Shown here: positions 803-19,125 of the stretch, piece by piece | Layout: every line of letters starts with the position of its first letter | Position numbering within the stretch: the first letter of the stretch is position 1 | IMG/VR virus record: IMGVR_UViG_3300007734_000752 | Strand: one strand, 5' to 3' | DNA: 20,000 nucleotides | DNA from: an uncultured virus (IMG/VR IMGVR_UViG_3300007734_000752) | Taxonomy: Duplodnaviria > Heunggongvirae > Uroviricota > Caudoviricetes | The notes under the pieces: model-generated | The model's database searches: none | Seen by the model: only the letters and a program-made list of their open reading frames with translations | What the model was told of the DNA's origin: nothing | Program-made: the position numbers and the translations under genes

Positions 803-1261
803 ATGACTATTACTTATGCTAAAGAAACTTATGCAGATATTATTGAAGACATAAAACCTTTGTTAGAAACCCATTGGCAAGAAGTAGCCAACTATAAAGA
901 CAAAGTGCCTTTAAAGCCCGACTTCAGTAAATATCAACTATTAGAAAAAAATAAAGCTTTAGTTATAGTGGCTTGTAGAGATAAAGAAAAACTTATTGGA
1001 TATTCAATATTTTTTCTTAGTAGGCATCTGCACTACACTACTTGTCTAGTAGCCAGTAACGACGTATTGTTTCTTACTAAAGCATTTCGTAAGGGCAGAG
1101 CTGGTATTAAACTTATTCAAGAATCAGAACGACTCTTAAAAAATATGGGTGTTAATAGAGTCATTTGGCACATTAAGCCAAAAAATAATTTTAGTCCTAT
1201 TTTGATTCGTATGGGGTACATACAAGAAGAAATCATTATGGGAAAATTTTTAGGAGATTGA
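803..1261 (+). CDS. GNAT-fold acetyltransferase-like protein of the virion module
   Basis: 152 aa with an acetyl-CoA-binding-type motif (DVLFLTKAFRKGRAGIKLIQESE) and C-terminal LIRMGY; sits between tail hub and pilot protein. Confidence 0.8.
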   Translation: MTITYAKETYADIIEDIKPLLETHWQEVANYKDKVPLKPDFSKYQLLEKNKALVIVACRDKEKLIGYSIFFLSRHLHYTTCLVASNDVLFLTKAFRKGRAGIKLIQESERLLKNMGVNRVIWHIKPKNNFSPILIRMGYIQEEIIMGKFLGD

Positions 1262-1262
1262 C

Positions 1263-2303: not shown

Positions 2304-2333
2304 GGCGCAACCTAATTTAAAGGAATTACTACT

Positions 2334-3602: not shown

Positions 3603-6600
3603 TGGCCTTTGATCTCTCTACTGCTAGGCCCATTGATGAATCTCGCCCTAGTAGCGCGGGGGGATTTGATCTATCTACTGCTCGTCCTATAGACGACCCT
3701 ACTGTTACTAGTAACACAGACGCAGGAGCTTTATCTGCTTTTGGAAGTGGTGCTGCTACTGGAGTTGTCCCTGGGCTAACTGGTTTAGCTGGATTTGGTG
3801 CTGGGATGAAAGCCTCTGCCCCCTACGCACTGAGGGCTGCTGCTGCGTTTCCTGTACCACATCCACTAGCTAAAGCTGCTGTTGGTGGTGGAGTAGCTCT
3901 TCTTGGTGGGTTTGCTGGTGCAGGAATAGGCGGCGGTGTAGCTTCTATAGCACAAGACATGCTTTACAAGATTGTAGATCCAGAAGGATACGCTAAAAAC
4001 AAGCTTGCTCAAGCACAACATCCTACTGCCTATGGAATAGGTAACATAGTAGGCAGCTCTGTAGGTATGAGTCCTAAAGCTCTACCTGAAATAGCGGGCA
4101 AAGTCTTTACTAAGCCTGTAGTTCAACGTGGAGTTAGTGCTGGACTAGGTGGTGGAATAAACGTAGCACAACAAGCTATGACTAAAGACCACATAGATTG
4201 GACAGAAGCCGCTGCTGCTACTGCTGTTGGTGCTGCTCTTCCAGGGTTTAATCCTTTAGGTAGTGCAGCTTTTCGTGCTGGAGAACGGCTTGTTCCTGGG
4301 AGTCGTCAACCTGTTGAGATGGGTATTGGGCCTAGAGACCCTGAGCCTGAAGTAGCTTCACCAGGTATTACTCCTAAGCCACCAGAGCCTCCTGCCCCCA
4401 CTAGGACAGAGGCGACTGGTCGTATTGACGCTAATCTACGTGAGGCAGAACTATCTACAGATCCAGGTAAGAGGCTTAAAGAAGCTGCTTTTAAAGATAC
4501 TGGTAACAATGACACCATTATTCCCCAAGGAAAAGGTCATGATGATTTTCTTAAAACAGATCCTAGGTTAGAACGAGGCTACTTAACAGAAGACAATACT
4601 TTTGTTACTCCCCAAGAAGCTAAGATTATTGCTGAGAACCAGCACTCTGATTTGCTTACAAAGGGCGTTGATCCTAAAGAAGGATTTCATTCTACTGACT
4701 TTGGCCCTGAGCGCATGGATGCGCTTAAGCCCAAAGAAGAATCTAAGTCTGTTGCCCAAGAACTAGGAATACGTAACGACAGCAGAAGTAATTTCTTTGA
4801 AGACGTAGAAAACTACAAACTTAGCCTATTAGACAAAGAGCAAAAGCTGGATAGTGCTGCTGCTTCTATGTCTCAAGAAGATCTTATTGCTGCCAATAGT
4901 GCTCTAGCTGCTGAGAAAACAAAACTAGCTGAAGCTAGCAAAGAAGTTCCAGAACTAATAATTAAAGACAAACAAAAAGCTACTTGGCAAGAAACTCATG
5001 ATGTTTTAGCAGGAGCTAAAACTATTGGTGAGGGTATAGATCGTTTGCTAAAAGAAGGAGTTGGCAGCAAGACTGTCCAACTAACGCTTAGGGTTTTAGG
5101 GCAATCAAAGTATATCCGTGATGCAGATCTTTCTATAAGCAGTGAAGCCAAACTTATAGATGGAAGACCTGCTCTTGGTCAATACATCAGCGGAGGAGCC
5201 AGTAAATCTCATGAAACTCGGCTATATGAAGGTGGCGGGCTAGGTACTTTTATTCATGAAGCAGTTCATGCTGGAGCACAACGTCTTCTTTATAACAAAA
5301 CATCTGAGGCTGCAAAAGAACTAATTAAAATATTTAAAAAGTTTGAAGATATTGGAGAAGGTGAATACCAAACTGCACTAAAACAACACCTTATAGATAA
5401 TCCTAATGCTACGCCTTTTGAATTAAACGAGTTTAGTTATAAAAATAGGCGCTACGGACTAACTGATGTTCATGAATTTGTTTCTGAAGCACTAAGTAAC
5501 CATAACTTTAAACAGTTCTTGTCTGAGTTTAAATCAGACGGTTCTAATGGAGTTGCTAGTAACTTATGGAAAGACCTTAAGAACAGCATCTATGATGGTC
5601 TTGGAGTTCCTAGAAAAGATCGTACTGCATTAGATGATGTGTTAGGACACACAGAGACTCTTTTAAAAGAATCTGAAAACTTTACTAGAAGTGAGTTAGA
5701 TGGCAGAAGCTTGCCTTCTAAAGGCTCAGCTCCTTTTGAATCTATTGGTGATACGGGCATAATTAAAGAAGCTTATGCTAAATTAAAAACTTGGAGTAAA
5801 GACAGAGAACAAAAAATAATAAATAATCACACTAATGATTACGGCACTATTGTTAACGATAAAGAATTAAAATCTGATCTTGATCGACTTAAAACAGAAA
5901 GTCTTTTTGAATACAAAAGAATTAAAAACGAGTTATTAGAAAATAAAAATAGAAAATTATTTTCTGAATTAAAAGAAAACGAAGTAGTTCATTACACACC
6001 AGAAGAAAACATACCTTCTATATTAGAAGGCGGCTTAGACACAACCAAGCCCCCTAAATTTTCTTTTGGAAACGACTCCAGTGGGAAAATGGGGCCAGAA
6101 GGAACCTATTACTTTACTAAAGACATAGTACAGTGGGCATTTCACGGTAAAGAACGTACTGGAATGAGTCGTGTAAAAGCAACTTTAGAGCCTAATTTAA
6201 ATATACTAACTATAGACTCCATAGATGCTGCAAAAAAAGCTGGACTTGAGAAAGATAGCGTAAGTGACTTTATTAGTGGTGCTAAAAATAATGGTTATGA
6301 TGGTGTAAGGTTTAAGTATTCTGAAGAAGGTTGGAAATCTGATTATGAGTATAGCCAGTGGACTGGTGGCAGTGGTAAAGATGATTTTTTAATATTTAAT
6401 AAAGACTCTTTTGTTTCTAATGAAAAAGGTAATCCTAAATTAACACTAGCTTCTAGAAGTACTGACGCACCCGGTGCACCTACTTCTGCTGTAGGCCCCA
6501 AACGCTATGATCCGCGCAATGTAGTTGACGAAGCAGACCTTAAAATTAAAGGTAAAGAACTCTATGCTGCTGAAGGTGCTGATGCTGCTCGTAAATTCTT

Positions 6601-8713
6601 TACTGACTATGAAACCTATAGAGATACTTGGCTTAATCCTGTTAAAGAGGTTGAGGATTTTGTAGAGATCAACATTAATAACAAGATGGCTGATGAGAGG
6701 ATTGTTATTAATAACAGTAACGACCTCAAGGCTTTAGTACCTGATGCTGTTGCTAGGGAACAAGTTTCTATAGCTATTGATGCTAAGAATACAAAGTCTC
6801 TTACAGGTGCTGCTAAAGAAGCAGCGGATAAATATACTGGCTGGATGAAAGACATTGGAGAACGCGCTTTAAAAGAAGGGGTTGTTAAAGGACTTCTTGA
6901 GAACTACGTTACTCACATTGTTAACTGGAAAGACTTGCCCAAAGGAGCTTTGGATACATTTCTTGCTGATGTATTTGGTAAGAAGTTTGAAGGTGAACCA
7001 AGCGGCATGACGCCAGAAAGCAGGTTTGGTAAAGAACGTACTGTAGAAACCTTTCATCAATTAGATCTGGCCCTAAAATACATAAATGAACGTATAGAAG
7101 CGGCGGGTAAGTCTGACTTTAGGTTAGAAGTTAAGACTAAAGATATTGCAGAAATTTATAAACAATACGCATCTTCAATGGAGAAAGCCATTGAGAACAA
7201 GAAGCTTGTTGATAGTGTTCGTCAAATTAGAAATGTAAAGGGAGAGTCTTTAGTACGTAGAATTACTGAAGAAGACCCCCTGCCTCGTGGTTGGACAACA
7301 ATTGATGATCGACAGTTTGCTGGCTTTGCAGTACACCCTGACCTTGCTCCTGCCCTTAAGTTTGCTTTTGAAGCTAAAGGCGGGATGATCTTAAATGCTC
7401 TCTACAATGTTTCTCAAATAACTAAACGTTTAAATGTTATAGCTTCTTTGTTCCACGCAAAAAGTCTTATGGAAGTGCTTAACAGCACCCATACTCCTAT
7501 AGTTACGCCAATAAAAGAGATTGCTCTTGGTATAACTGACAAGTCACTAGGAACAGAATTATCTGGAATTAGAAAAGCAGTCAATGAGTTTAAAGAAGGT
7601 GGGTTAGGCAGTAGTGTAGACAAATGGCAACGTGGTGGGCTGGTTCTTGAAACACCTGGCGATGTTTCTAAGGGAGTGATTGCTAATGCAGGTAAGTTTG
7701 CTGACAGTATGATCTCTAAGTTTGGCCCTAAAACACACATACTAGAATCAGCACTTACTGCTACTGAGAAATACACCTTAGGCGTTTTTGATAAAGTTAC
7801 TTGGGACTACCTGCACACTGGCGGCAAGCTAATGACTGCTGAAGCCTACCTAACTAAGGCTAGAGAACAAGCAACTAAAGATGGTGTTCCTTTTGATGAA
7901 GCTGCTTCTCGTAAAGAAATAACAAGTTTCATTAATAAATCTTTTGGTGGATTAAACTGGTTTCAAGAAGCCCGTAGTGCTGAAACAGAGTTTGGCAAAC
8001 GTATGGCTATGGCTGCGTATTCTCCAGAAGGACGTAAAGCTTTACAGATAATGTTGTTTGCTCCTGACTGGACTATCTCAACAATCAAAGCCTTTACCTC
8101 AGCTCTTCCTAAGGGGTTTAATCCCACTAAATGGCACCCCATAGAGGGAGTCAAGGGGATGGGTACACCTAGTACCCAAGCTGATTACGCTAGGTTGTAT
8201 CAGTTTAAAACTGCTTTGACTTATTTGACTTTGATTAATGGCATCAATCTAATTACAGCAAACCGTCCTATTTGGGAGAACAAAGATCCAACTCGTATTG
8301 AATGGCCTGATGGAACTAGTATGCAAGCCATGAAGCACGCTATGGAACCCTATCATTGGTTAGCTGACCCAACTAAAACCTTAAGCAATAAGCTGGGATT
8401 TGTGCCCAAATCTGCTGTTATTGGGCTAACAGGTAGTGAGTATGCAAGCCCAAGTGCTCCCAAATTAGTTGATCCTTCTCTAACTAACCGCGCTATTGCT
8501 ATTGGTAAGCAAGCTTTGCCTTTCCAAATCTCTGCTGCTATGTCTGCACCAGAGGGGGAGGGAACTAAGAGAGCGTTACTAGGAACAATTGGGTTGCCTG
8601 TCTATGGGAAAACCGTAGAACAGCGTAAGATAGCTCGTAAAGAACGTTATGAAGCAGTACGTGAACAACGTGAAAAATACAGAGAACGTGAAAGAATGAG
8701 AGAAAATCAGTAA
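3602..8713 (+). CDS. Large multidomain (polyvalent-type) DNA ejection protein (gp16-like position) with HExxH metallopeptidase and ADP-ribosyltransferase-like domains
   Basis: 1703 aa. Gly/Ala-rich hydrophobic N-terminus; HEAVH at aa 552-556 with downstream HEFVSEALSN; ART-like motifs HYT...SILEGGL, GTYYFT, GYDGV, FLIFN; C-terminal helical region with FGGLNW and FAPDW. Coupled by TAATG overlaps at both ends. Confidence 0.75.
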   Translation: MAFDLSTARPIDESRPSSAGGFDLSTARPIDDPTVTSNTDAGALSAFGSGAATGVVPGLTGLAGFGAGMKASAPYALRAAAAFPVPHPLAKAAVGGGVALLGGFAGAGIGGGVASIAQDMLYKIVDPEGYAKNKLAQAQHPTAYGIGNIVGSSVGMSPKALPEIAGKVFTKPVVQRGVSAGLGGGINVAQQAMTKDHIDWTEAAAATAVGAALPGFNPLGSAAFRAGERLVPGSRQPVEMGIGPRDPEPEVASPGITPKPPEPPAPTRTEATGRIDANLREAELSTDPGKRLKEAAFKDTGNNDTIIPQGKGHDDFLKTDPRLERGYLTEDNTFVTPQEAKIIAENQHSDLLTKGVDPKEGFHSTDFGPERMDALKPKEESKSVAQELGIRNDSRSNFFEDVENYKLSLLDKEQKLDSAAASMSQEDLIAANSALAAEKTKLAEASKEVPELIIKDKQKATWQETHDVLAGAKTIGEGIDRLLKEGVGSKTVQLTLRVLGQSKYIRDADLSISSEAKLIDGRPALGQYISGGASKSHETRLYEGGGLGTFIHEAVHAGAQRLLYNKTSEAAKELIKIFKKFEDIGEGEYQTALKQHLIDNPNATPFELNEFSYKNRRYGLTDVHEFVSEALSNHNFKQFLSEFKSDGSNGVASNLWKDLKNSIYDGLGVPRKDRTALDDVLGHTETLLKESENFTRSELDGRSLPSKGSAPFESIGDTGIIKEAYAKLKTWSKDREQKIINNHTNDYGTIVNDKELKSDLDRLKTESLFEYKRIKNELLENKNRKLFSELKENEVVHYTPEENIPSILEGGLDTTKPPKFSFGNDSSGKMGPEGTYYFTKDIVQWAFHGKERTGMSRVKATLEPNLNILTIDSIDAAKKAGLEKDSVSDFISGAKNNGYDGVRFKYSEEGWKSDYEYSQWTGGSGKDDFLIFNKDSFVSNEKGNPKLTLASRSTDAPGAPTSAVGPKRYDPRNVVDEADLKIKGKELYAAEGADAARKFFTDYETYRDTWLNPVKEVEDFVEININNKMADERIVINNSNDLKALVPDAVAREQVSIAIDAKNTKSLTGAAKEAADKYTGWMKDIGERALKEGVVKGLLENYVTHIVNWKDLPKGALDTFLADVFGKKFEGEPSGMTPESRFGKERTVETFHQLDLALKYINERIEAAGKSDFRLEVKTKDIAEIYKQYASSMEKAIENKKLVDSVRQIRNVKGESLVRRITEEDPLPRGWTTIDDRQFAGFAVHPDLAPALKFAFEAKGGMILNALYNVSQITKRLNVIASLFHAKSLMEVLNSTHTPIVTPIKEIALGITDKSLGTELSGIRKAVNEFKEGGLGSSVDKWQRGGLVLETPGDVSKGVIANAGKFADSMISKFGPKTHILESALTATEKYTLGVFDKVTWDYLHTGGKLMTAEAYLTKAREQATKDGVPFDEAASRKEITSFINKSFGGLNWFQEARSAETEFGKRMAMAAYSPEGRKALQIMLFAPDWTISTIKAFTSALPKGFNPTKWHPIEGVKGMGTPSTQADYARLYQFKTALTYLTLINGINLITANRPIWENKDPTRIEWPDGTSMQAMKHAMEPYHWLADPTKTLSNKLGFVPKSAVIGLTGSEYASPSAPKLVDPSLTNRAIAIGKQALPFQISAAMSAPEGEGTKRALLGTIGLPVYGKTVEQRKIARKERYEAVREQREKYRERERMRENQ
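3608..3694 (+). repeat. Duplicated N-terminal decapeptide FDLSTARPID
   Basis: Copies at 3608-3637 and 3665-3694 are identical in protein and differ at several synonymous positions. Confidence 0.9.
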
Positions 8714-10608
8714 TGGCACAGCTCTTACCGCCTATTCCTAAGGAACCGATTGAACCAAACTCCCATGTTTGGAGAGAGTGGTTTAATTCTATTAGGAACG
8801 TCATTGTTGGTACAGCCCAAGGAGTTATTTCTTGGGCCTCACTCAACTTTGATGGTAGTAACATTACAGATATTGTTACTAGGAACCACAACAATCTACA
8901 GACTATCCAAGGCGGTACTGCTAACCAGTATTATCACCTTACAGCTACTCAGCTTACAAACCTAGGTACCGTTACAACGGTCTCTGTAGCCACTTCTAAC
9001 GGCTTTGCTGGTACTGTGGCTACTGCCACCTCCACACCCGTCATAACCCTTTCTACAAGCATTACAGGGCTTCTAAAGGGTAACGGTACGGCTATCAGTG
9101 CTGCTACTTCTGGTACTGACTATGCTCCAGCTACTAGTGGAACATCTATTCTGTACGGTAATGGCTCTGGAGGATTTTCTAACGTCACTATTGGTACTGG
9201 TGTTTCTTTTACTACGGGTACTCTGTCAGCTACAGGATCTGGGGGCACCATAACTAGCGTTACTGGTACTGCTCCTGTTGCTAGTTCTGGTGGTACAACC
9301 CCTGTCATTAGCATGGCGGCTGCTACAACATCAGTAAATGGTTATTTAACCAGTACAGACTGGACTACTTTTAATAATAAAGGATCTGGCACTGTTACCA
9401 GTGTAGCTGCTATTACTCTTGGTACAACTGGTACAGACCTGTCTAGTACTGTTGCTAATGGTACAACTACCCCAGTTATTACGCTTCAAGTACCAACTGC
9501 TTCTGCTTCTAATCGGGGTGCTTTAAGTGCTGCTGATTGGACAACCTTTAATAGCAAAGGCTCAGGCACTGTTACTTCTGTTACAGGTTCTGCCCCTGTT
9601 GTGTCGTCTGGTGGTGCTACACCTGCAATCTCAATGGCTGCTGCTACTACGTCGGTCAACGGATATTTGACCAGTACGGACTGGAATACGTTTAACGGCA
9701 AGGGCAGCGGCACCGTTACCAGTGTAGCGCAGTCATTTACCGGCGGCTTGATCTCGGTTGCTGGCTCACCGATCACCACATCCGGCACTCTGGCTTTAAC
9801 GGTTGCTGGTACTTCTGGTGGTGTTCCTTACTTTTCTAGTACCTCTACTTGGGCAACATCTGCTGCGCTTGCTGCTAGTGCTATTGTAATAGGTGGTGGT
9901 GCAGGAGCAGCTCCTTCTACAACAACTACGGGAACAGGTGTTGTTACTGCTCTGGGAGTTAATACAGGTTCTGCTGGTGCGTTTGTGGTCAACGGCGGCG
10001 CTCTCGGCACACCTTCTAGCGGCACCGTCACTAACCTGACCGGCACTGCCAGCATCAACATCAACGGAACGGTTGGCGCGACAACTGCCAACACTGGTGC
10101 GTTTACCACGATTAGCGCGACAGGGAATATATCCAGTTCAGCAGGAAACTTTGTACCTGCAAACGGCTACGGCATCGACTTTTCTGCCACATCAGGAACA
10201 GGCACAAGCGAGTTGCTGGCTGACTACGAAAAAGGCACTTTTACACCGACAGTAATTGGAACAACAACCGCAGGAACAGCTACTTATGCCTATGCTGTGG
10301 GTAACTATGTAAAAGTAGGTGATGCGGTTAATTTCCAAATAATTATCAGTTGGAGTGCTGGCACAGGCACAGGCAACCTTGCTTTATCTAACTTACCTTT
10401 TACCGCTGGTGGTTCTTATTATTCTGTAAGCCTTGGTCGGGTTGACGCATTAGCATTAACTGCGTCAAATATCGCAACAGCGTATGTTGAAGGTGCTACA
10501 ACAAAAATAATATTTGCCCAAACCCCAGTTGGCGGGGGCGCAGCTTCTCAAGTTCCATACGATGCAAATGTTGACGGGTTGTTTGTTTCTGGAACTTATC
10601 TTATCTAA
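8713..10608 (+). CDS. Tail fibre protein, Thr/Gly/Ser-rich with internal repeats
   Basis: 631 aa. N-terminal VWREWF and HNNLQTIQGG...YYHLT motifs; repeated GTVTSV and DWTTFNxKGSG units; C-terminal GIDFSA...LADYEKGTFTP receptor-binding-type domain. Confidence 0.8.
   Translation: MAQLLPPIPKEPIEPNSHVWREWFNSIRNVIVGTAQGVISWASLNFDGSNITDIVTRNHNNLQTIQGGTANQYYHLTATQLTNLGTVTTVSVATSNGFAGTVATATSTPVITLSTSITGLLKGNGTAISAATSGTDYAPATSGTSILYGNGSGGFSNVTIGTGVSFTTGTLSATGSGGTITSVTGTAPVASSGGTTPVISMAAATTSVNGYLTSTDWTTFNNKGSGTVTSVAAITLGTTGTDLSSTVANGTTTPVITLQVPTASASNRGALSAADWTTFNSKGSGTVTSVTGSAPVVSSGGATPAISMAAATTSVNGYLTSTDWNTFNGKGSGTVTSVAQSFTGGLISVAGSPITTSGTLALTVAGTSGGVPYFSSTSTWATSAALAASAIVIGGGAGAAPSTTTTGTGVVTALGVNTGSAGAFVVNGGALGTPSSGTVTNLTGTASININGTVGATTANTGAFTTISATGNISSSAGNFVPANGYGIDFSATSGTGTSELLADYEKGTFTPTVIGTTTAGTATYAYAVGNYVKVGDAVNFQIIISWSAGTGTGNLALSNLPFTAGGSYYSVSLGRVDALALTASNIATAYVEGATTKIIFAQTPVGGGAASQVPYDANVDGLFVSGTYLI
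9244..9726 (+). repeat. Two 54-aa repeats (9244-9405, 9565-9726) plus a partial third unit in the tail fibre
   Basis: GTITSVTGTAPVASSGGTTPVISMAAATTSVNGYLTSTDWTTFNNKGSGTVTSV vs GTVTSVTGSAPVVSSGGATPAISMAAATTSVNGYLTSTDWNTFNGKGSGTVTSV: 47/54 aa identical by manual alignment. Confidence 0.9.
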
Positions 10609-10616
10609 AGGTCAAT

Positions 10617-12224
10617 ATGTCTTTAACAAAAGTTTCCTATTCGATGATTTCTGGTGCGCCAGTTAACATTACTGATTTTGGAGCGGTGGGTGACTCTAAC
10701 GGAACTACTGGAAACGGCACAGATGACACAGCCGCTATTCAAGCCGCTGTTACTTATGCAAACGTAAATGGGCTTAGTGTGTATCTTCCATCAGGAACAT
10801 ACCGAATCACTGCCCCAATTAATTTTGCTGGAGCGCAAACCAAGATGGATTTTGTTGGGGAATCAAATTTTGACACAGTAATTTTTGCTGATTTTACTTC
10901 TGCTACCCCTGTCGCAGCTTTGTCCGTAGCAAGCACAGACAGTGCTAGAACTTATGTTGGGTTCAGAAACTTTGCTCTTTTAGGTAGAAGCACAGCTAAT
11001 GTAAGCGGCATATACAGCAACTATGGAAGCGAATTTACAGAGTTTCAAAATGTTTGGGTTAGAAATTTTTACAATGGTTTTGTCATTGGAGTTAACTACC
11101 ATTTAAAACTCACAAATTGCCAAGCATGGGCTTGCGTAAACAATGGTTTTCAAATTGGATACACGATAGATGGCACTTTAGCACCTGCTAATAACGTAGG
11201 ATTGTTTGGATGTCTTGCCACTGGTAACGGGGCAAATGGTTACAATGTTGCTGCTTGTCGTGCATTAGGAATGGTGCAATGCGACAGCGAAGCCAACGTG
11301 TATGCAAACATCAATTTAGACACTGTGTATGGGGCTAGTCTGACTGGAATTTACATGGAATATGCCCCAAGTGTTCCGGGAAATCCACCAGCTCAACTTT
11401 ACATTAAAAACTCTACTGGTGTTGCTGTAAATGGCTTGTCAGTTAGCGCATTTGATAACAGTTTAAACCCAGTTATTCTTGTAGATGATGGATGTAACGG
11501 AGTTATTCTTAACGCTATTGCTATAGAAACGGCTGGATCGCCTACGTTAGCTGTTGGATTACTTGTAAGAGATAGCTTTGGTGTTGCATTGAATTCATCA
11601 TATTTCAATGGAATGAATACTGGTGTTTATTTGGCTAATGCAGCCCGTCTTTCAATTCGTGACTCAACCTTTGATAACTGCACAAATCCAGTAACGGCTA
11701 CAGGCGCTGGTGGACAATATATATATTGGGATCAAGCAACTGTTGCACAAGTTGCGGCATCTGCTCCTAACATTGCAAGCAATGTGTCTATCGATGTTTG
11801 GTATATCAATAACACAAAAAACAAGGTAGATCAAACTGTAGCGTTTAACGTATCCGTAAGCTATACAGATTTAGTTGCAGCGGGAACAAAAACGCTTATA
11901 GATAGTACATTTTTAGGTGAGCAATGGAGAATTCTTAACATTATTATTCTTGGTCTTACTCAATTTTCGGGTGGTGGCGGTAATCGTTTGCTTTCAGTAA
12001 CAGATGGTACGCATACTTATACCGTTTTGACTGCTGCTACTTTGGGAACTGCTAATATTCAAGCACAACTTGGTTCGGCATCAGTTCCTTTTTCAGCAGT
12101 ACCATCAGACATGGTACAGCCGACTACCGCTGGCGCAAATCTATATGCTGCTTATTCTGGCGGCACAACTGATTACACCGCTGGTGCTATTAATTTGACT
12201 ATTGTTGCTGAAAGAGTTGCATAA
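10617..12224 (+). CDS. Tailspike / depolymerase, pectate-lyase-like right-handed beta-helix
   Basis: 535 aa with the Pectate_lyase_3-type N-terminus VNITDFGAVGD...DDTAAIQAA...VYLPSGTYRIT, followed by Asn/Gly/Cys-rich beta-helix rungs. Confidence 0.85.
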   Translation: MSLTKVSYSMISGAPVNITDFGAVGDSNGTTGNGTDDTAAIQAAVTYANVNGLSVYLPSGTYRITAPINFAGAQTKMDFVGESNFDTVIFADFTSATPVAALSVASTDSARTYVGFRNFALLGRSTANVSGIYSNYGSEFTEFQNVWVRNFYNGFVIGVNYHLKLTNCQAWACVNNGFQIGYTIDGTLAPANNVGLFGCLATGNGANGYNVAACRALGMVQCDSEANVYANINLDTVYGASLTGIYMEYAPSVPGNPPAQLYIKNSTGVAVNGLSVSAFDNSLNPVILVDDGCNGVILNAIAIETAGSPTLAVGLLVRDSFGVALNSSYFNGMNTGVYLANAARLSIRDSTFDNCTNPVTATGAGGQYIYWDQATVAQVAASAPNIASNVSIDVWYINNTKNKVDQTVAFNVSVSYTDLVAAGTKTLIDSTFLGEQWRILNIIILGLTQFSGGGGNRLLSVTDGTHTYTVLTAATLGTANIQAQLGSASVPFSAVPSDMVQPTTAGANLYAAYSGGTTDYTAGAINLTIVAERVA

Positions 12225-12229
12225 CCGTA

Positions 12230-12290
12230 CCAGTTCGGACAACTGGAAAACTTAATATCTGACTGGATGGTCAGATTGGAAACAAGGAAA
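12230..12290 (+). promoter_or_regulatory. Intergenic double hairpin with GGA loops upstream of an RBS (putative translational control element)
   Basis: CCAGTT-cggac-AACTGG (12230-12246) and ATCTGAC-tggatg-GTCAGAT (12257-12276) are perfect stems; no U tract; followed by an AAGGAAA RBS. Confidence 0.5.
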
Positions 12291-12294
12291 CATC

Positions 12295-12528
12295 ATGTTA
12301 GAAAAAGTCATCTCTGTCGATTTGATTGAAGTTGTTGAAAACGGCTCAATTCAAGTTCGTACTAAAATCGCCATCAAAGAAGATGGCGTTGAAATCAGTA
12401 GCAAGTTCCACCGTCACGTTGTCGCCCCCGGCAATGACTACGCTGGCGAAAATGCCAGAGTGCAGGCGATTTGTGCGGCAGTGCATACGGATGAAGTGAT
12501 TGCGGCGTACATTAAGGAACAACTATGA
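12295..12528 (+). CDS. Small tail-fibre-associated protein (possible assembly chaperone)
   Basis: 77 aa (D.IEVVENGSIQVR...EDGVEIS..FHRHVVAPG), good RBS, ATGA overlap with the next gene; resembles small genes that follow phage tail fibres. Confidence 0.65.
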   Translation: MLEKVISVDLIEVVENGSIQVRTKIAIKEDGVEISSKFHRHVVAPGNDYAGENARVQAICAAVHTDEVIAAYIKEQL

Positions 12529-13019
12529 GCAATGTTAATCTCTCAGCGTTTGGCGGCGTCGGTTGGCAATTCTTCGACAACAACGGCGTGCCGCTGGCTG
12601 GCGGGCTGATCTACACCTACGAAGCAGGCACCACGACACCGCAGGCCACCTACACGACCAGTGCGGGAACGGTCGCGCACCCTAATCCGATTGTGTTGAA
12701 TTCCGCAGGGCGGGTGCCTGGTGGCGAGATTTGGTTGCTGTTTGCCAGCTACAAGTTTGTCCTGCAAACCTCGGCAGCGGTGTTAATTGCCACCTACGAC
12801 AACATCACCAGCGGCGGCGGTGTGCCTGTTATTTCCAACTTTACCGGCGACGGCACCACGGTCAGTTTTAGCTTGGGCAACGCAACCAACGAAAACACTA
12901 CAAACGTCTACATCAACGGCGTTTACCAGCAGAAAAACACTTACTCGCTTAGTGGGTCAAATCTGGTGTTTTCAACCGCACCGCCGATAACATCTTCAAT
13001 TGAAGTCAGCTTTACTTAG
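12525..13019 (+). CDS. Tailspike head-binding-like / adaptor protein
   Basis: 164 aa. N-domain QFFDNNGVPLAGGLIYTYEAGTTTP...NPIVLNSAGR resembles tailspike virion-attachment domains; C-domain FTGDGTT..F...VYINGVYQ...Y..SG..LVFSTAP is a small beta-sandwich common in phage tail proteins. Confidence 0.65.
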   Translation: MSNVNLSAFGGVGWQFFDNNGVPLAGGLIYTYEAGTTTPQATYTTSAGTVAHPNPIVLNSAGRVPGGEIWLLFASYKFVLQTSAAVLIATYDNITSGGGVPVISNFTGDGTTVSFSLGNATNENTTNVYINGVYQQKNTYSLSGSNLVFSTAPPITSSIEVSFT

Positions 13020-13030
13020 CAGGAGCAACC

Positions 13031-13495
13031 ATGACCGTAACCGTAAAAGTCCTTATCCCCGCCAAGACCGCAGGCATGGACAATCCAATAGGCTGTTGGA
13101 ATTGGACAGGCTTTAAAAGCCGTGACGGTTACGGTATTGTCCATTCAGGTAATAAATTGTTGAAAGCGCATCGCGTAGCGTATTGTGAGGCTAACCATAC
13201 GACTTTGGCTGAAATTAAAAATGTAGTTATCCGGCATAGTTGTGACAACAGGCAATGCCTTAACCCCGCGCATTTACTGCCGGGGTCTAGCGCAGACAAC
13301 ACTCAAGATCGACACAAACGAAATAGGGATGCAAAAGGCTCTACCAATGGCAATTCAAAGCTAACGGAAAGCCAAGTGCAAATCATTCGTACACAATATG
13401 AAAATTATGGCAAAAGAGTGTTGGCCGCGCAATACGGCGTGTCTGTTAGTTTAATCTCCCAGATTGTCCGAAAAGACATCTGGAAACACGTTTGA
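13031..13495 (+). CDS. HNH (His-Me finger) homing endonuclease with C-terminal HTH, fused to the first 14 codons of the downstream structural gene
   Basis: GCWNWTG...GYG...AHRVAY...RHSCDNRQCLNPAHL..GS.ADN..D is the phage HNH signature; KLTESQV...LAAQYGVSVSLISQI...W is HTH-like; AGGAG RBS at 13021-13025. Confidence 0.9.
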   Translation: MTVTVKVLIPAKTAGMDNPIGCWNWTGFKSRDGYGIVHSGNKLLKAHRVAYCEANHTTLAEIKNVVIRHSCDNRQCLNPAHLLPGSSADNTQDRHKRNRDAKGSTNGNSKLTESQVQIIRTQYENYGKRVLAAQYGVSVSLISQIVRKDIWKHV

Positions 13496-13570
13496 AAAGG
13501 ATATTAAAATGACAGTTACAGTCAAAGTTTTAATTCCGGCTAAAATTGCCGAAGCAACTCAAGTAACCCA
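13073..13570 (+). mobile_element. Inferred homing-endonuclease insertion cassette: HNH body, new RBS and recoded 5' end of the target gene
   Basis: Bounded by the duplicated peptide MTVTVKVLIPAK. Lower GC than flanks (26/60 at 13141-13200 and at 13321-13380 vs 38/60 at 12601-12660 and 39/60 at 13621-13680). Right boundary is approximate. Confidence 0.65.
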
Positions 13571-13844
13571 ATACACCGCCACCAACGTCACCACGATCAT
13601 CGACAAGTTTACGGCGACCAACTACAGCGCGACAGCGGCGACCTTGAGCGTGAATCTGGTCACGTCGGGCGACACGGCTGGCAATCAGAACTTGATTACC
13701 AAGACCAAGACGCTGGCGGCCAGCGAGGTATATACTTTCCCTGAGATTGTTGGCCAGGTGCTGATGGCAAGCGGGTTCATCTCCACCATTGCAGGCACCG
13801 CAACGGCAATCAACATTCGCGCTTCAGGGCGGGAGGTTAGCTAG
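13509..13844 (+). CDS. Small beta-rich putative virion structural protein (111 aa)
   Basis: The likely start is ATG 13509 after AAAGG (13496-13500), not 13464. Thr/Ala-rich sequence MTVTVKVLIPAKIAE...IIDKFTATN...YTFPEIVGQVL...INIRASGREVS. Confidence 0.75.
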   Translation: MTVTVKVLIPAKIAEATQVTQYTATNVTTIIDKFTATNYSATAATLSVNLVTSGDTAGNQNLITKTKTLAASEVYTFPEIVGQVLMASGFISTIAGTATAINIRASGREVS

Positions 13845-14221
13845 TGGGCGAGCAAGAACAAGCGGTGCGCGCCATATACGATTCGGTGCAAGACCGTTTG
13901 GCTTGCGATTTTGCGCCATTTGCGGCTTTACTAAAAGACTGGCAAATAGTGCCTTTGACGCAAAACAACACCGTAATTGGTGGTGTTATGTTACGCAATA
14001 ACGAGATTCACGTAGGCTATAAACGCCGCCCAAGCGCGTCAATTATGCGGCATATCAAAAGCACGTTAGGCGATATACTAACGCGGTTTGATGAAGCGGT
14101 AACTTGCGTAATGGAGACAAATACGCGGGGGCTAGAGTTCTGCCGCCGGTTAGGGTTTGTGCCTACATTGGTTGAAAATGGTTGTATCTATATGAAATGT
14201 ATGAGGTGTCCCTATGTATAA
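13844..14221 (+). CDS. GNAT-fold-like protein (P22 gp14-like position), cassette 2
   Basis: 125 aa; GTG start overlaps the upstream stop; EIHVG and motif-B-like NTRGLEFCRRLGF; precedes the pilot protein. Confidence 0.6.
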   Translation: MGEQEQAVRAIYDSVQDRLACDFAPFAALLKDWQIVPLTQNNTVIGGVMLRNNEIHVGYKRRPSASIMRHIKSTLGDILTRFDEAVTCVMETNTRGLEFCRRLGFVPTLVENGCIYMKCMRCPYV

Positions 14222-15119
14222 AGTCTATCTTAGCCGCGCTCAAACCCGCGCTTGGAGTTTGGATATGCCTATCGGTGATCCGACAGGCGGGCCTGCGTAT
14301 GGTGAACGTAACGATCCGGTTTCAGCCGCGATAAGCGTTGGCGGTTCGTTACTTGGATCAGTGCTTAGTTCCAATAGCGCGTCTGACGCAGCAAGCACCG
14401 CAGCGCAAGCATCGGGCGCGGCTTCGGATGCGTCCATCGCAGAGCAGCGCCGACAGTATGACCTTAGCCGCGCTGATTACGCGCCGTACCTTGCTGCTGG
14501 CACTGAGTCGGTCAACCAGCTTGCTACTGATCTAAGGCCAGGTGGACGGTTTGCATCTCCCACACCATTTGATTTTCAATACGACCAAAACACTGACCCC
14601 GGTTACGGATTTAGGTTTGACCAAGGAATGCGCGGCGTGAACGCTTCAATGGCGGCTAAAGGTATGGGCCTATCCGGTGCAGGTATTAAAGGCGCAACTG
14701 CGTTTGGTCAAGGCATGGGTAGTCAAGAATACAACAACGCTTTCAACCGCTATCTGACCGGCTTCAACGCCAACACGGGCGAACGAAACCAGCTCTATAA
14801 CCGATATGCGGGTGTAGCAGGAACAGGTCAAAATGCGGTTGGAGGCGTTACGGCACAAGGCGCGAACATGGCGGGTAACATCGGCAACGCCTACATGACC
14901 AGCGCAGCCAACACCGGCAACGCAGCAATGGCAGCAGCGGGGCAGCGTCAGTCGGCTTTTAGCGGCGCGGCTAACGTGTTAGGCCAGATGAACAGATATG
15001 GGGGTTACCGGTCACCTTATGGTGGCGGTGGCGGTGGCGGTGGCGGTGGCAACTACGCCCCAGTGCAAGAAGGCCCGTCTAATTTTAGCCAACCAAATAT
15101 GCAGGAACAAGGATATTAA
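14214..15119 (+). CDS. DNA ejection / pilot protein (P22 gp7-like), cassette 2
   Basis: 301 aa; DPVSAAI..GG hydrophobic segment, EQRRQYD...PYLAAG, DPGYGFRFDQG...AAKGMGLSGA...GQGMGSQEYNNAFNRY; Gly/Ala/Asn-rich. Confidence 0.75.
   Translation: MYKVYLSRAQTRAWSLDMPIGDPTGGPAYGERNDPVSAAISVGGSLLGSVLSSNSASDAASTAAQASGAASDASIAEQRRQYDLSRADYAPYLAAGTESVNQLATDLRPGGRFASPTPFDFQYDQNTDPGYGFRFDQGMRGVNASMAAKGMGLSGAGIKGATAFGQGMGSQEYNNAFNRYLTGFNANTGERNQLYNRYAGVAGTGQNAVGGVTAQGANMAGNIGNAYMTSAANTGNAAMAAAGQRQSAFSGAANVLGQMNRYGGYRSPYGGGGGGGGGGNYAPVQEGPSNFSQPNMQEQGY
15021..15050 (+). repeat. (GGTGGC)x5 perfect tandem repeat encoding 10 Gly
   Basis: ggtggcggtggcggtggcggtggcggtggc read directly from the sequence. Confidence 0.95.
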
Positions 15120-15121
15120 TC

Positions 15122-16759
15122 ATGGCTGAACTTAACTTTGGACTACTGACCCCGCCCGGCTCGCAGAGCATAGGCAACGCTTTTGCACAGGGCATGGATC
15201 AAGCAGCGGTGGCTAGGGCGCAGGAGAACCAGAACGCGCTGGCTCAGTACACCTTGAGCAAAGCAAAGCGCGAGGATGAACTGAACACTCAGTTGTTGGG
15301 TGATCTGCGAAACGCGACTACAAACGATGAAATATATCGTGCGTATCAACGAGCGGGCAAAGGTGACGTAGCGTCCAAGCTGCGTGGAGAAGGACTAACA
15401 CAAGACAAAACTCGGCTAGAAATAGCTGGGATGCCAGCAACACAAGCAAACACAAAAGCGCAAACTGCCGTACGTCACGGCACCGTTATGAAAAACGAGG
15501 CAACAAGGGTGCTTGCAGATCCTACCCTCGACAACGCAATGCGAGCTGTAGTTAATTTCGGTAAAGCTACGGGGCAAGATGTAACGCAAGAACTAGCAGC
15601 GATTACCGCTATGGGAAATGACCCGGTTAAAATTGCTAACTGGGCTAAAGGCCATGCAGTTACCGGCGAGCAACTGTTAAATCAAAGCAAACCGCCAGAC
15701 GTAGCCCGGTTAATAGAATACCGCAATAGTCTGCCCGAAGGCGCGGATCGCAACGCTGTGACGGCTATGATAGAAAAAGCGAGCAACGAAAATTATCAGT
15801 ATAATACTAATACTGGAACATTTGAACTCCGACAAGGTGGTGGCGCTGCGCCAGCATCCGCGCCGCGTGGGTTTGTCGATCCCGGTATAGCGCAAGGTGC
15901 GACGCCGGTACTGCAAGCACCTAGCGTTGACGAAGCACGTCGGCAGGCGTTTGCTATGAACGCAGCGGGGCTGCCGGTTAATATTCGGGGTGGTGGTAAT
16001 GCTTTGGCCGGCGCGCAACCGGCGGCAACGCCGCCGGATGTTAATGCGCTGCGCGCGCAGCCTGCCGCCGCTGCGCCGCCGTCAAACCCAAGAGAAAAAT
16101 TGGAAGACTTTCAAGCGGTTCTGGCGTTAGAAAAATTAGGGTATCGTCGAACACCCGAAGGTAATTTTGAAAAAATTTCCGGCGGCCCTGCGGATAAAAC
16201 CGTCGTAACAAGAACACCAGTGCAAGAAGGAAAATTCCGAAAAGATTTGGCCACTGATTACACTACCACTACCGCTACCACGCAAGGAATGCAAGATGTT
16301 CTTGACGCCATAACTGACGTTAAAAACTCTCCGGGTTTGGCCGGCGCAACGGGCATCTCCGGTATGGTGTATTCTTTTCCGGGTTCCCAAGCGGCGGCTG
16401 CTGAAACTAACTTAGCTAACCTAAGAGGTAAAGTTACTTCGTTAGGCCAAACCCTTGCAAACGCCAGCGGCAAAATTGGCCCTATGGCCGTACAAGAATG
16501 GACAATTGTTAGGGATATGGTTGCCGCGTTAGATACAGCGGTTAGCAAAGGCGAAACTATTACCCGCGAAGAATTAACTAAAATAGAGTTTGCCGCTAAA
16601 AATGTTGCTAAACGGGTACAAGATAAATTTGAAGGCCAATACGGCGACGAATTGAGCAACTACCCGCAATTTGCCACCGTTCCAGAACCAAAATCACGAT
16701 TAAGCGGCAAAATAAAACCCGCAAGTACCATTGACGCGCTGTTAAAAAAGTACGAATAA
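15122..16759 (+). CDS. DNA ejection protein (gp20-like position), cassette 2
   Basis: 545 aa, Ala/Gln-rich with ENQNALAQY, ISGGPAD and LGQTL...GKIGPMAVQEW motifs; lies between the pilot and the large ejection protein. Confidence 0.6.
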   Translation: MAELNFGLLTPPGSQSIGNAFAQGMDQAAVARAQENQNALAQYTLSKAKREDELNTQLLGDLRNATTNDEIYRAYQRAGKGDVASKLRGEGLTQDKTRLEIAGMPATQANTKAQTAVRHGTVMKNEATRVLADPTLDNAMRAVVNFGKATGQDVTQELAAITAMGNDPVKIANWAKGHAVTGEQLLNQSKPPDVARLIEYRNSLPEGADRNAVTAMIEKASNENYQYNTNTGTFELRQGGGAAPASAPRGFVDPGIAQGATPVLQAPSVDEARRQAFAMNAAGLPVNIRGGGNALAGAQPAATPPDVNALRAQPAAAAPPSNPREKLEDFQAVLALEKLGYRRTPEGNFEKISGGPADKTVVTRTPVQEGKFRKDLATDYTTTTATTQGMQDVLDAITDVKNSPGLAGATGISGMVYSFPGSQAAAAETNLANLRGKVTSLGQTLANASGKIGPMAVQEWTIVRDMVAALDTAVSKGETITREELTKIEFAAKNVAKRVQDKFEGQYGDELSNYPQFATVPEPKSRLSGKIKPASTIDALLKKYE

Positions 16760-16761
16760 TT

Positions 16762-19125
16762 ATGGCAACCATCGAAGAACTAAGCGCGGCGCTGGTTAAA
16801 GCGGATGCAGCGGGCAATGCTGTTGACGCCAAAGCCTTTGCGGATGAAATTCGGCGCGTAAAGCAAGCCCCCGAAAAAGAACGCAGTTTTACACGTAGGG
16901 CGTCCGATGTAATGGGTGACATTGGGTCGGGCGTGGTGAAAGGTGCAACGGATATTGGCGCCACGTTGATGGCACCCTTTGATTTTGCCGCTCGGTATCG
17001 CGGGTACGACATTCCATTTGTTCCTGGCCGTTTGGATGACCGACGGCAACAAATTACCAACTTCTTAACCGACCAGGGCGCGGATGTTAATTCGCTATCT
17101 TATGGCGGGGGTCGCCTTTTCAGTAACGTTGCTGGCACTGCGGGTTTGGGGCCGGTACTCGGCGCGGGGCTAAAAGCAGTTGCGCCATCAGCCGCGCCGT
17201 TAGCCGCGTCTATTAGCGCCGGCGGGTTTATACCCAAATCTTTAACCGCCACCGAACGTATAGCGGCAGGTTTGCCTGCGGCTACTATTCTTGAAAAGGC
17301 CACTAACGTAGGCATTCGCGCTGCGGGCGGTGCGGTAGCCGGTGGGGCGGGCGCATTTGCGATCAACCCGTCAGAAACTGGTACCGGCACCGTTGTAGGC
17401 GCGTTAGTGCCTACCGTGGGCGCGGCTCTTGTATCGCAATTGGCGAAGAAAACAGGTTTTCTTTGGGACGCTATAACGGGAAAATTAGGCGCGGTAAAAG
17501 CCGCCGAAATAGCTAGGCAAGTAGCGGCGGGGGACGCCGCCGCTATTCGCGCAGCTAACGCTGTTGCCGACCCAAGCCTTACCGCAGGGCAAGCAGCGGG
17601 GGGCGCGGGTAATACCGCGTGGGCTGCGTTGGACGCCTTGTCTCGTAAACAAAACACGGGCGGCGCGTTCACTAAAAAAATTGACGCTCAAACCGCTAAC
17701 ACTGAAGCAACGTTTGATAGGTTAGCTGGCGGCCCCACCGCGCTGGAATCCGATATAGCGCAAAAGCAGACTAAGGCCACGCTTAATACACTTACTACGC
17801 CTATGCGTGAGGCGGCGCTTGAACGCGCCGGTGTGGCGGGCGAAGCGGTGCCTTTCTTGCAACAAGTAGCTGCCAAAGGCGAAGCCGGGGCTACAAGCGC
17901 GGTTGCCGATGTGCGTCGGTTTACGGGTTTGATTGAACCCGCAGATAATTGGGCGCGTACTTGGGCGCCTAGCGCTATGGCAGATGTTGATGCAGCAGGA
18001 AAATTTATACGCGGTGGCGATGTGCGTTTGTTAGGCATACCAAGACAACCGCAAGCAGCTACATACCCCGGCCAATTAGCAGTGCGGGCTGAAGGCGCGG
18101 CTACCACGGCGGCTGAAGAGTCATTGAAACTGGGTGCTATTGCACGCAACGCCAAAACAGCAATAGCTGACTTGGAAGCACAAGGACTGAAACCGCTTAA
18201 ACCGGACAGCATTATAGCGTCTATAAAGTCTAAACTTACTGACCCAAGCATTGCGTTAAACGCCAATCTTGCACCCGCGTTAAAACGGGTTACAGACATG
18301 TTGGGCGACTGGACTAACAAGTTTGGGGTTATCACACCTGAAGCACTGTACGCCATACGCAAAAATGGTATTGCTGGCGTTATTCAAGATTTGCATCCTA
18401 CCGCCACGCCAGACCAACGCCGCGCTTTTGCTCAAGCGGTTATGACCGAAGTGCGCCCGCTAATTGATGACGCTATAGAAGCAGCGGGTGGTGCGGGCTG
18501 GAAAGCATACCTAAAAACTTTTGAGCAAGGTATGCACGTCGTTGAACAAAAACGAATGGCCGACGTAGCGCGACAGCTATACAAGTCCGGCGACAAGCAA
18601 GGGTTCATAGACTTGGTCAAAGGTAGCAACGACAAGGCGCTGGGTATAGTAGAAGATGTTTTTGGCCCCGGCAAAGTTAATTTTGTGCAGCTTATGGGCG
18701 GGCAACGGCCTAAAAGTCCCGCGTTGGAATATATGCGGATAGCCGAAGAAACCGCAAGAGACCTTGATTTGGCTAAACGCGCGGGCGAAGGCGGCGCGGA
18801 ATTAGCCAAAATTATAGACCGCAACGCGTTAAAATTTAATTTCCCGCCGTCACTTAGCACCAAAATTGCCGTCGCGCGGCAGGGCATGAAAGAATTTGAA
18901 GGCAAGATAAACCGCGCCGCTATGGACGCGTTGGAAAAAGGTATGCGTTCCGGCGCAAGTGCCAATGAAATGTTGGCTATGGTACCTGCCGCCGAACGGG
19001 GGAAAGTGCTTAAAATTATGACTGATAGCGCAACATGGAGTCCTCTGCTAACAACGGGCGTTAGGCAGGGCGCGGTTAACCGGCTAGCACCGCAAGAAAA
19101 CCAAAACAGACTAACGGCACCTTAA
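16762..19125 (+). CDS. Large DNA ejection protein (gp16-like position), cassette 2
   Basis: 787 aa; N-terminal LSAALVKADAAGNAVDAKAFADEI, Gly/Ala-rich hydrophobic region, helical C-terminus ending NRLAPQENQNRL. Confidence 0.65.
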   Translation: MATIEELSAALVKADAAGNAVDAKAFADEIRRVKQAPEKERSFTRRASDVMGDIGSGVVKGATDIGATLMAPFDFAARYRGYDIPFVPGRLDDRRQQITNFLTDQGADVNSLSYGGGRLFSNVAGTAGLGPVLGAGLKAVAPSAAPLAASISAGGFIPKSLTATERIAAGLPAATILEKATNVGIRAAGGAVAGGAGAFAINPSETGTGTVVGALVPTVGAALVSQLAKKTGFLWDAITGKLGAVKAAEIARQVAAGDAAAIRAANAVADPSLTAGQAAGGAGNTAWAALDALSRKQNTGGAFTKKIDAQTANTEATFDRLAGGPTALESDIAQKQTKATLNTLTTPMREAALERAGVAGEAVPFLQQVAAKGEAGATSAVADVRRFTGLIEPADNWARTWAPSAMADVDAAGKFIRGGDVRLLGIPRQPQAATYPGQLAVRAEGAATTAAEESLKLGAIARNAKTAIADLEAQGLKPLKPDSIIASIKSKLTDPSIALNANLAPALKRVTDMLGDWTNKFGVITPEALYAIRKNGIAGVIQDLHPTATPDQRRAFAQAVMTEVRPLIDDAIEAAGGAGWKAYLKTFEQGMHVVEQKRMADVARQLYKSGDKQGFIDLVKGSNDKALGIVEDVFGPGKVNFVQLMGGQRPKSPALEYMRIAEETARDLDLAKRAGEGGAELAKIIDRNALKFNFPPSLSTKIAVARQGMKEFEGKINRAAMDALEKGMRSGASANEMLAMVPAAERGKVLKIMTDSATWSPLLTTGVRQGAVNRLAPQENQNRLTAP

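Follow-up and report, generated by a model that had tools for sequence, protein, structure and literature searches.

A probable homing-endonuclease cassette that occupies the start of a conserved virion gene in phages and brings a respelled copy of that start

Why do two neighbouring phage genes begin with the same peptide, written in almost entirely different codons? The question is raised by a stretch of 20,000 nucleotides (hereafter the window) from an uncultured virus of the class Caudoviricetes (IMG/VR record IMGVR_UViG_3300007734_000752), in which an open reading frame (ORF) for an HNH endonuclease is followed by the gene of a 111-amino-acid protein, here called the target. We describe this locus as what is very probably a homing-endonuclease cassette lodged among the first codons of a conserved virion gene of phages, with neither intron nor intein. 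The anatomy of the cassette, its presence or absence at a fixed site, its near-identity in diverged backgrounds and its co-occurrence with empty alleles are directly observed. The insertion lies after native codon 14 of the target (codon 19 in relatives of the nuclease), so that the native ribosome-binding site, start and first codons enter the nuclease frame, and the target is rebuilt intact downstream. The features of the locus are as follows.

13074..13568 (+): mobile cassette, comprising junction codons, nuclease, stop, new ribosome-binding site and start, and respelled codons 1-20
13021..13025 (+): native Shine-Dalgarno AGGAG of the target gene, now before the nuclease ORF; same context in empty alleles
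13031..13073 (+): copy 1, the native first 14 target codons plus 1 nucleotide; in-frame nuclease leader and left homology arm
13031..13495 (+): HNH homing-endonuclease ORF, 154 amino acids, read from the native start (phrog_6254)
13074..13090 (+): junction codons (G)MDNPI with internal ATG 13076, unrelated to target codons 15-19
13091..13492 (+): core of the nuclease, a His-Me finger with Cys/His zinc ligands, followed by the DNA-binding part with its helix-turn-helix at the C-terminus
13496..13508 (+): cassette-borne spacer with replacement Shine-Dalgarno AAGGA (13497-13501), conserved in loci L084, L093 and L094
13509..13568 (+): copy 2, replacement first 20 target codons in A/T-ending spelling (G+C content at third codon positions, GC3, 0.21)
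13509..13844 (+): target gene, 111 amino acids, small, all-beta and jelly-roll-like, probably a virion protein
12525..13019 (+): upstream gene, outside the element, 164 amino acids, tail-fibre-like with a DUF4183-type C-terminal domain (Pfam PF13799, E 8.2e-9)

In translation, the N-terminus of the HNH ORF is MTVTVKVLIPAKTA and that of the target is MTVTVKVLIPAKIA. The two DNA copies of this start spell 10 of codons 2-12 differently, the ATG and an AAA codon alone being unchanged; they differ at 14 of 43 nucleotides, and their longest identical stretch is 5 nucleotides. A DNA repeat finder did not detect the duplication, and no terminal inverted repeats were found. A transposon with a target-site duplication was considered and rejected, given the differences between the copies, the missing inverted repeats and the lack of a transposase domain. 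A peptide-pattern scan found the shared motif twice only in the window and in three other nuclease-bearing loci, and never twice in nuclease-free loci. A preliminary description of this DNA had claimed these same-peptide, different-codon starts, an AGGAG before copy 1, a separate site between the HNH stop and copy 2, and a Met at 13076 without a well-spaced site of its own, and the DNA and its translation bear it out on each of these. The AGGAG occupies 13021-13025, with ATG 13031 lying 5 nucleotides on; the stop codon TGA of the nuclease (13493-13495) is followed by AAGGA, with ATG 13509 lying 7 nucleotides on; and the 22 bases 5' of ATG 13076 hold no spaced AGGA or GGAG. The same description held copy 1 to be C/G-ending like its surroundings. 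This is true of what directly flanks it, with a GC3 of 0.66 in the gene upstream and of 0.76 in the target-gene body, but not of the window genes at 803-12224 (0.22-0.33). The GC3 of copy 2 compares with a mean of 0.59 over 80 natural alleles. A scan of 12200-14300 for promoters and terminators gave 4 and 6 sites, against 2.4 and 3.0 in shuffled sequences, none of them tellingly placed.

To decide which copy is native, 83 target-gene loci were compared, namely the best 80 of 572 relatives from a scan of viral contigs with the 111-amino-acid protein, together with three GenBank phages. The nuclease is present in none of the 83, with flanks of up to 3 kb upstream included. Loci L016, L017, L009 and L023 share the stop of the upstream gene, the ribosome-binding site and the ATG context with the window, and in them copy-1-type codons run uninterrupted into ...AE(A/N)(S/T)QTTQYTA. 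The empty allele had been predicted to continue from copy-1 codons into ...E..Q.TQYTA, and it does. Copy 1 is 1-3 nucleotides from L014, L023, L005, L009 and L016, while copy 2 is 5-6 nucleotides from its closest alleles, which are themselves atypical. For the 20 alleles nearest to the window in gene body, the mean distance to copy 1 is 5.4 of 43 nucleotides, where 4.7 are expected from the divergence of the body, and that to copy 2 is 11.95. Since the closest-body alleles match copy 1 at the expected divergence, copy 1 is the native 5' end and copy 2 the intruder. Copy 2 deviates from the consensus of the 80 alleles at 21 sites in the first 75 nucleotides, and 20 of these lie inside its 60 nucleotides. 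The duplicated part holds 11 of these copy-2-specific sites, none of which is found in copy 1.

The cassette was found in three other loci, the viral contig L084 and the metagenome contigs L093 and L094. The nuclease core is 99-100% identical in them, and the whole cassette is about 97.3-100% identical to that of the window. Identities to the window, part by part, are as follows.

Upstream DNA: L084 92.9%, L093 34.0%, L094 40.4%
Copy 1: L084, L093 and L094 each 90.7% (4 of 43 nucleotides differ)
Nuclease part, 13074-13495: L084 100%, L093 98.6%, L094 97.6%
Spacer and copy-2 codons 1-20: L084 100%, L093 94.5%, L094 97.3%
Gene body: L094 88.8% (the contigs of L084 and L093 end earlier)

The DUF4183-type upstream gene is common to the window and L084, and other DNA stands before copy 1 in L093 and L094, in which nucleotide similarity to the window starts at the copy-1 ATG and the upstream DNA is unrelated. 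Because homology between backgrounds starts exactly at copy 1, this copy can be taken as a working left arm. Up to the junction, copy 1 keeps the variants of each background: codons 13-14 are spelled in three ways, and L084 has a GTG start. The junction codons (G)MDNPI, by comparison, are constant in all window-type copies. The copy-2 spelling reaches six codons beyond the duplicated 14 in all four loci, which is the pattern of co-conversion, and presence or absence at a fixed site with near-identical copies in four diverged backgrounds is the pattern of a homing element. The nuclease belongs to a protein cluster of 20 members at 90% identity. The 15 members listed are found on 45 contigs from several data sources and carry 7 leader strings (5 when GTG and ATG starts are merged), mirroring known target alleles; among these leaders are MAVYVK, MTVTVKTL and one with a two-codon deletion, and GMDNPI always comes next. 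The search of other genomes for the same HNH gene with a respelled start, which had been proposed as a check, thus succeeded in L084, L093 and L094.

Reads were approached through Logan contigs of four public runs, aligned to 12600-14100. Unitigs covering 13032-13594, 13032-13598 and 13061-13598, in runs of three studies, show no difference to the window. In one run, a contig joins 13073 to 13565 through 13 native-type letters, and is thus an empty allele in the same sample as the cassette. This contig, and the use of one site in four backgrounds, agree with the insertion at about codon 14-15 that had been proposed. Loose contig ends at 13071 and 13073 go on as empty alleles, and those before 13030 show other upstream contexts. 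That the duplication is an assembly artefact might be argued from the contigs of L084 and L093, which end 73-85 nucleotides past the start of copy 2, as the unitigs end at 13594-13598. However, the same structure is found in three other contigs and in the 45 contigs of the protein cluster, and the ends lie at points of divergence between strains, which is what a cassette common to several strains would produce, since assembly stops on passing from it into strain-specific sequence. With zero-difference unitigs in the runs of three studies, we consider an artefact, or an artificial alteration of the window, excluded for practical purposes. One metatranscriptome run gave a 256-nucleotide contig, 13091-13346, that is 100% identical to the window, which is no proof of transcription as it may stem from DNA in the library. 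The summed depth in runs X1, X3 and X7 is 20.6, 8.7 and 8.1 for the nuclease, against up to 401, 74 and 26 for the target body, which hints that carriers are a minority, although frequency cannot be read from these depths, which add up every strain's contigs at 90% likeness.

The nuclease ORF matches the PHROG family phrog_6254, 'HNH endonuclease', with an expectation value (E) of 2.6e-27 over residues 16-149, and six further HNH or endonuclease PHROGs. All these HNH profiles align with the ORF only from residues 16-22 on, so residues 1-15 do not belong to that family. Relatives of the nuclease carry the precomputed Pfam domain PF13392. A profile of the nuclease family matches I-HmuI (PDB 1u3e; E 0.0018) across both the nuclease and the C-terminal DNA-binding part. 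I-HmuI, a nicking enzyme of Bacillus phage SPO1, differs from the window nuclease in being intron-encoded, and the similarity is remote. The 11 columns that are invariant in 49 relatives, namely C22, G33-Y34-G35, H47, R48, H69, C71, C76, H81 and N90, are all present in the window nuclease, and we take them to include the catalytic His/Asn and the Cys/His metal ligands. The AlphaFold model of the nuclease has a mean predicted local distance difference test score (pLDDT) of 91.6, with 66 in the leader block. The window nuclease can be described as an I-HmuI-like HNH homing endonuclease that looks intact in its family-invariant residues and is predicted to cleave. Some points speak against this description, and against a nuclease that depends on the target for its start. 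The Pfam HNH_3 profile scores 20.4 bits on the window nuclease, under its cut-off of 24.8; I-HmuI is the top Foldseek match but a weak one (E 0.011, 14% identity in the structural alignment); and an in-frame ATG at codon 16 of the nuclease ORF makes some independent initiation possible.

The two N-termini could also be the ends of exons or exteins, if the insert is removed from the RNA or the protein as a group I intron or an intein. Many I-HmuI-type phage HNH genes do lie in group I introns, according to the available text of PMC10448857. At this locus, however, no Rfam family was found in 12400-14300 at E up to 1, except a chance match to a small nucleolar RNA; a Pfam search found no intein-type domain; and the nuclease ORF ends in a stop codon, with a full-length downstream gene that has its own ribosome-binding site and start. 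We regard removal by splicing as extremely improbable, and the earlier proposal that the gene is repaired without it stands.

A search of a large protein collection gave 73 relatives of the nuclease, 26 of which were fetched. In 16 of these 26, the protein is 157-164 amino acids long, is 57-69% identical to the window nuclease over its whole length and begins with the 19 N-terminal residues of the target, fused directly to the invariant Cys-Trp core; examples of such starts are MTVTVKVLIPAKTAENSQT, MAVNVKVLIPAKIAENSQT and MAVTVNNIIPAKTAENVVT. The leaders vary in step with the target N-terminus, as judged from a sample of 271 members of the target family. As to the other relatives fetched, five start with MLNQ or MLNT..KI, two have no leader (P0148 and P0149, 140-142 amino acids) and two are remote. 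DNA of two leader-type lineages, L238/L240 and L239, was found by a scan for the junction pattern, which gave no match in prokaryote genomes. The two copies in L238/L240 are identical in 19 of 19 amino acids, including the rare variant MAVNVK, and differ at 14 of 57 nucleotides, all of the changes being synonymous. Those in L239 are identical in 17 of 19 amino acids and differ at 19 of 57 nucleotides, with changes both ways and not just towards A/T. Downstream of the nuclease, both lineages have a related module made up of a stop, a GGAG-type site and a start. In the nuclease ORF of L238, the next in-frame start is codon 56, past the invariant core; the nuclease has no start codon of its own in either lineage, and a leader fusion would be obligatory in such relatives. 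The respelled-start architecture, suggested at first for the window, therefore recurs in more distant nuclease relatives, in DNA in two lineages and as a leader in 16 of 26 proteins.

Leaders of 19 codons in relatives put the canonical junction of the family at the boundary of target codons 19 and 20, from which the window type departs, having 14 native codons and then six unrelated ones. The speculation that GMDNPI represents decayed target codons 15-19 was tried, and alignment neither supports nor excludes it. The relatives P0129-P0133 are 151-amino-acid proteins beginning with MLNQ(S/T)KIVK, not with the target leader. This start may have been taken as a leader from some other target gene; no close relative of the MLNQSKIVK proteins was found among the viral contigs.

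Could the nuclease nonetheless be an ordinary free-standing, intergenic HNH gene that starts at Met 13076, with copy 1 a functionless remnant of one illegitimate recombination? The window-type ORF does have an ATG at codon 16, the PHROG profiles begin about there, and P0148 and P0149 are leaderless. On the other side, no spaced site precedes 13076, while a strong one precedes 13031 with an open frame between them; the 16 relatives carry a 19-residue leader on the core, in L238 with no other in-frame start before codon 56; and homology between backgrounds starts exactly at copy 1, as it would at a working left arm. We consider this explanation quite unlikely.

How the two copies came to differ so much is less clear-cut. 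In one account, the recoding is no design: copy 2 would be the 5' end of a natural allele lineage, saturated by drift and co-converted with the nuclease, and immunity and resistance to deletion would be by-products. Several results count in this direction, against a respelling shaped by selection. Among 2211 pairs of natural alleles, 5.2% differ at 14 or more of 43 nucleotides and 2.8% in at least 10 of 11 codons, and in a simulation with uniform synonymous codon use at least 13 differences are seen in 3.3% of pairs. Copy-2-type spelling also occurs in alleles without the nuclease (L004, L021, L030 and L041, and partly L008 and L010), so that copy 2 may be the 5' end of such a lineage, and target lineages of lower GC are known (L068, L074-L076 and L081). 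An advantage through weaker mRNA structure of the A/T-rich copy 2 was tried and rejected: the folding energy at the start is -11.3 kcal/mol, against -6.1 for copy 1, 60 of 80 natural alleles show folding no stronger than that of copy 2, and L238 and L239 show no consistent trend. The divergence of copy 1 from copy 2 can thus be placed at or just past synonymous saturation; as it lies in the upper tail of natural pairs and not beyond, recoding as a selected design is not demonstrated.

Other results speak against a natural allele lineage. Of 81 5' ends, none has a lower GC3 than copy 2, and only L041, itself a mosaic, equals it. No allele was found that pairs copy-2 spelling with a low-GC body, the lowest body GC3 being 0.46. 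The copies of L238 share the rare MAVNVK and still differ by 14 synonymous changes, fitting divergence in place, and all three cassette lineages are highly diverged between their copies. The lowest GC3, the three diverged lineages and the peptide identity of L238 with 14 silent changes favour, as sequence patterns, more than drift. We hold the drift account to be a serious one, somewhat less probable than its opposite.

Recombinant alleles without a nuclease throw further light on the matter. Most alleles have 1-5 of the 21 copy-2-specific sites, but L041 has 18, L004 15, L010 12, and L008 and L021 have 11 each, and in these five the sites form contiguous runs. In L041, a MAVYVK-type copy 1 is joined to a window-type copy 2 at codons 6-7, and the nuclease carrier P0204 has that leader. 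In L004 (2960-3003), L155, L157 and L158, the native ribosome-binding site is followed by 22 extra bases, a second site, a TTG start and copy-2-type codons, an arrangement that looks like the scar of a cassette deletion. Empty alleles resembling copy 2 had been named beforehand as the finding that would speak against copy 1 being native. They are present (L004, L008, L010, L021 and L041) but a minority, and the 20 closest-body alleles match copy 1. As the copy-2-spelled empty alleles are few and mosaic, we take them to have arisen by loss of the nuclease, or by repair in which it was not acquired.

The same gene start has been entered by a second invader. At L020:2396-3010 and L030:200-815, a different and unrelated homing endonuclease of 174 amino acids (HNH_3 and AP2) lies on the opposite strand. 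Its left stub retains the native ribosome-binding site, the start and about 10 nucleotides of the gene, and this start opens a 69-codon frame antisense to the nuclease. The module at its right end (stop, GGAG site, TTG start) also stands after the leader-type nuclease of L239, which suggests that the HNH-AP2 element took over the right end of an older cassette. Relatives of the HNH-AP2 nuclease, 47-50% identical to that of L020, were also seen in L114, L115 and L116, a few hundred bases past the 3' end of the target homologue; these occupy a different site beside the same gene.

A course of events can be proposed for the homing cassette. The nuclease would be translated from the start of the target as a leader fusion. 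Upon co-infection, it would nick or cut naive alleles around codons 15-20, and repair of the break would use the genome that carries the cassette as its template, copy 1 serving on the left and the gene body on the right as homology arms. The respelling of copy 2 would remove the recognition site from the carrier, would deny the broken left end a pairing partner downstream of the nuclease, and would leave no run of identity long enough for easy deletion; the carrier would be protected because the insertion divides the site at copy 1, while copy 2 spells it differently. Occasional recombination between copies 1 and 2, or illegitimate recombination, may drop the nuclease and leave resistant mosaic or scarred alleles. 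It is possible, and in our estimate nearly an even question, that such cassettes form a widespread phage class of nucleases without initiation signals of their own, which are obligate fusions tied to the late expression of their target and carry a respelled start under selection. Selection on the respelling in that class would act through self-immunity, blocked deletion and a broken left end forced to pair upstream of the nuclease.

The target is a member of a large family, with at least 7994 matching proteins and 824 clusters at 50% identity. Its AlphaFold model (pLDDT 93.9) can be described as an eight-stranded beta sandwich. The first strand consists of residues 3-13, and the N-terminus that the cassette replaces is for this reason integral to the structure. 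The fold matches phage proteins of about 110 amino acids, some of which are named 'virion structural protein'. In comparison with solved structures, a sequence profile gave nothing credible and Foldseek against the PDB gave weak jelly-roll matches (E at least 1.6e-3). The product is probably a virion protein. One variant of the target protein, P0003, has 166 amino acids and an internal tandem duplication of about 55 residues.

Neighbouring ORFs of the window match a head-closure protein, a pectate-lyase-like tailspike, a DUF4183 fibre-like protein and DNA-ejection proteins, by which the region is assigned to a podophage virion module. No near-identical DNA was found among GenBank phages. The nearest named relative, Phage DSL-LC05, is a freshwater isolate whose 111-amino-acid homologue is 75% identical and has no nuclease before it. 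Within the module, 803-1261 is a GNAT acetyltransferase gene and 3602-8713 is an ORF of 1703 amino acids of no known family. GC3 jumps sharply inside the module, from 0.22-0.33 in the six left genes (803-12224) to 0.44-0.76 on the right (12525-19125). Since the match of related contigs to 9001-10000 is at a similar level in DNA and in protein, this jump looks like a natural mosaic and not an artefact. The target-gene contigs L321-L325 were binned with metagenome-assembled genomes of Burkholderiaceae, Hydrogenophaga, Alphaproteobacteria and Candidatus Fonsibacter, which points only faintly to hosts, given that the binning of phage contigs is unreliable.

The closest described parallel that we found is, by analogy, the mORF gene hybrid of fungal mitochondria, of which the phage cassette would be the 5'-end mirror image. 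Such hybrids are reported, in the accessible part of the source, for atp6 of Allomyces macrogynus and for atp6, atp9, cox2 and nad3 of Glomus sp. (PMC3630166). As described there, an endonuclease ORF lies inside a coding sequence, in phase and unspliced, with a foreign copy of the displaced gene end; and, with the protein conserved, the copy brought in stands further from relatives than the native copy that it displaced, as it does here (11.95 versus 5.4 of 43 nucleotides). The mORF elements in the same text differ in replacing the 3' end and leaving the native end downstream, and in being LAGLIDADG or GIY-YIG enzymes of organelles, whereas the window has an HNH enzyme in a podophage-like structural module (PMC3630166). 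The window cassette replaces the 5' end together with the ribosome-binding site and start, and the native start is taken by the nuclease.

In phages, the Seg and Mob genes of T4 undergo 'intronless homing', which the cassette resembles in its fixed-site presence or absence, the presumed cleavage of the naive allele, repair from the carrier and co-conversion of flanks; some T4-type free-standing homing genes lack translation signals of their own and overlap the upstream ORF, according to the text available to us (PMC2988022). These genes are intergenic, and none is described in the accessible text of that source as fused to target codons or as bringing a replacement start (PMC2988022). The window ORF is not intergenic in this sense, as it begins at the ribosome-binding site and ATG of the target and holds 14 target codons (19 in relatives). 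A nuclease of HNH type inside a coding region whose function is kept is also described, in the portions available, for MobE in nrdA of Aeh1 and for MobA in T4 gene 39/60, where the host protein is split and reassembles, unlike the window target, which stays in one piece (PMC2988022, PMC10448857). Introns, inteins and one split gene are the arrangements that the available text gives for phages (PMC10448857). No description of a phage nuclease with a replacement gene start was found in the literature, in which subscription journals were thinly covered and the sources at hand were available in part (among them PMC10448857, PMC8351571 and PMC2988022).

The homing cassette of this locus is real and natural. 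Its kind is known in principle from organelles, and it is present here as a conserved 5'-end variant in a large family of freshwater phages, with traces of gain and loss at the population level. Beside self-splicing and the splitting of genes, it represents a third route into a coding sequence, which is to replace the gene end that it displaces. With a nuclease family at 57-69% identity and many target alleles, this is a conserved strategy and not a one-off. As both homology arms lie inside the target, the element can move between phages with unrelated neighbouring genes, such as those of L093 and L094. For annotation, it means chimeric N-termini of nucleases, TTG starts and tandem ribosome-binding sites in target genes, duplications that DNA repeat finders miss, and contig breaks at cassette edges.

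A comparison can also be made with engineered 'home-and-rescue' gene drives, which reportedly carry a recoded, cleavage-immune copy of their target and are synthetic, RNA-guided and used in insects. In both, a nuclease targets an important gene and the carrier allele brings a respelled rescue copy; the window differs in having a natural, protein-guided phage nuclease and in replacing only the first ~20 codons. With its carriers, empty alleles, resistant mosaics and scars, the locus offers a natural, population-scale freshwater-phage system in which the cycle of gain, loss and resistance of respelled-rescue drives could be followed. If these cassettes do form a widespread class, they would be the natural counterpart of engineered 'recoded rescue' drives, and the same site in the virion gene would be a battleground.

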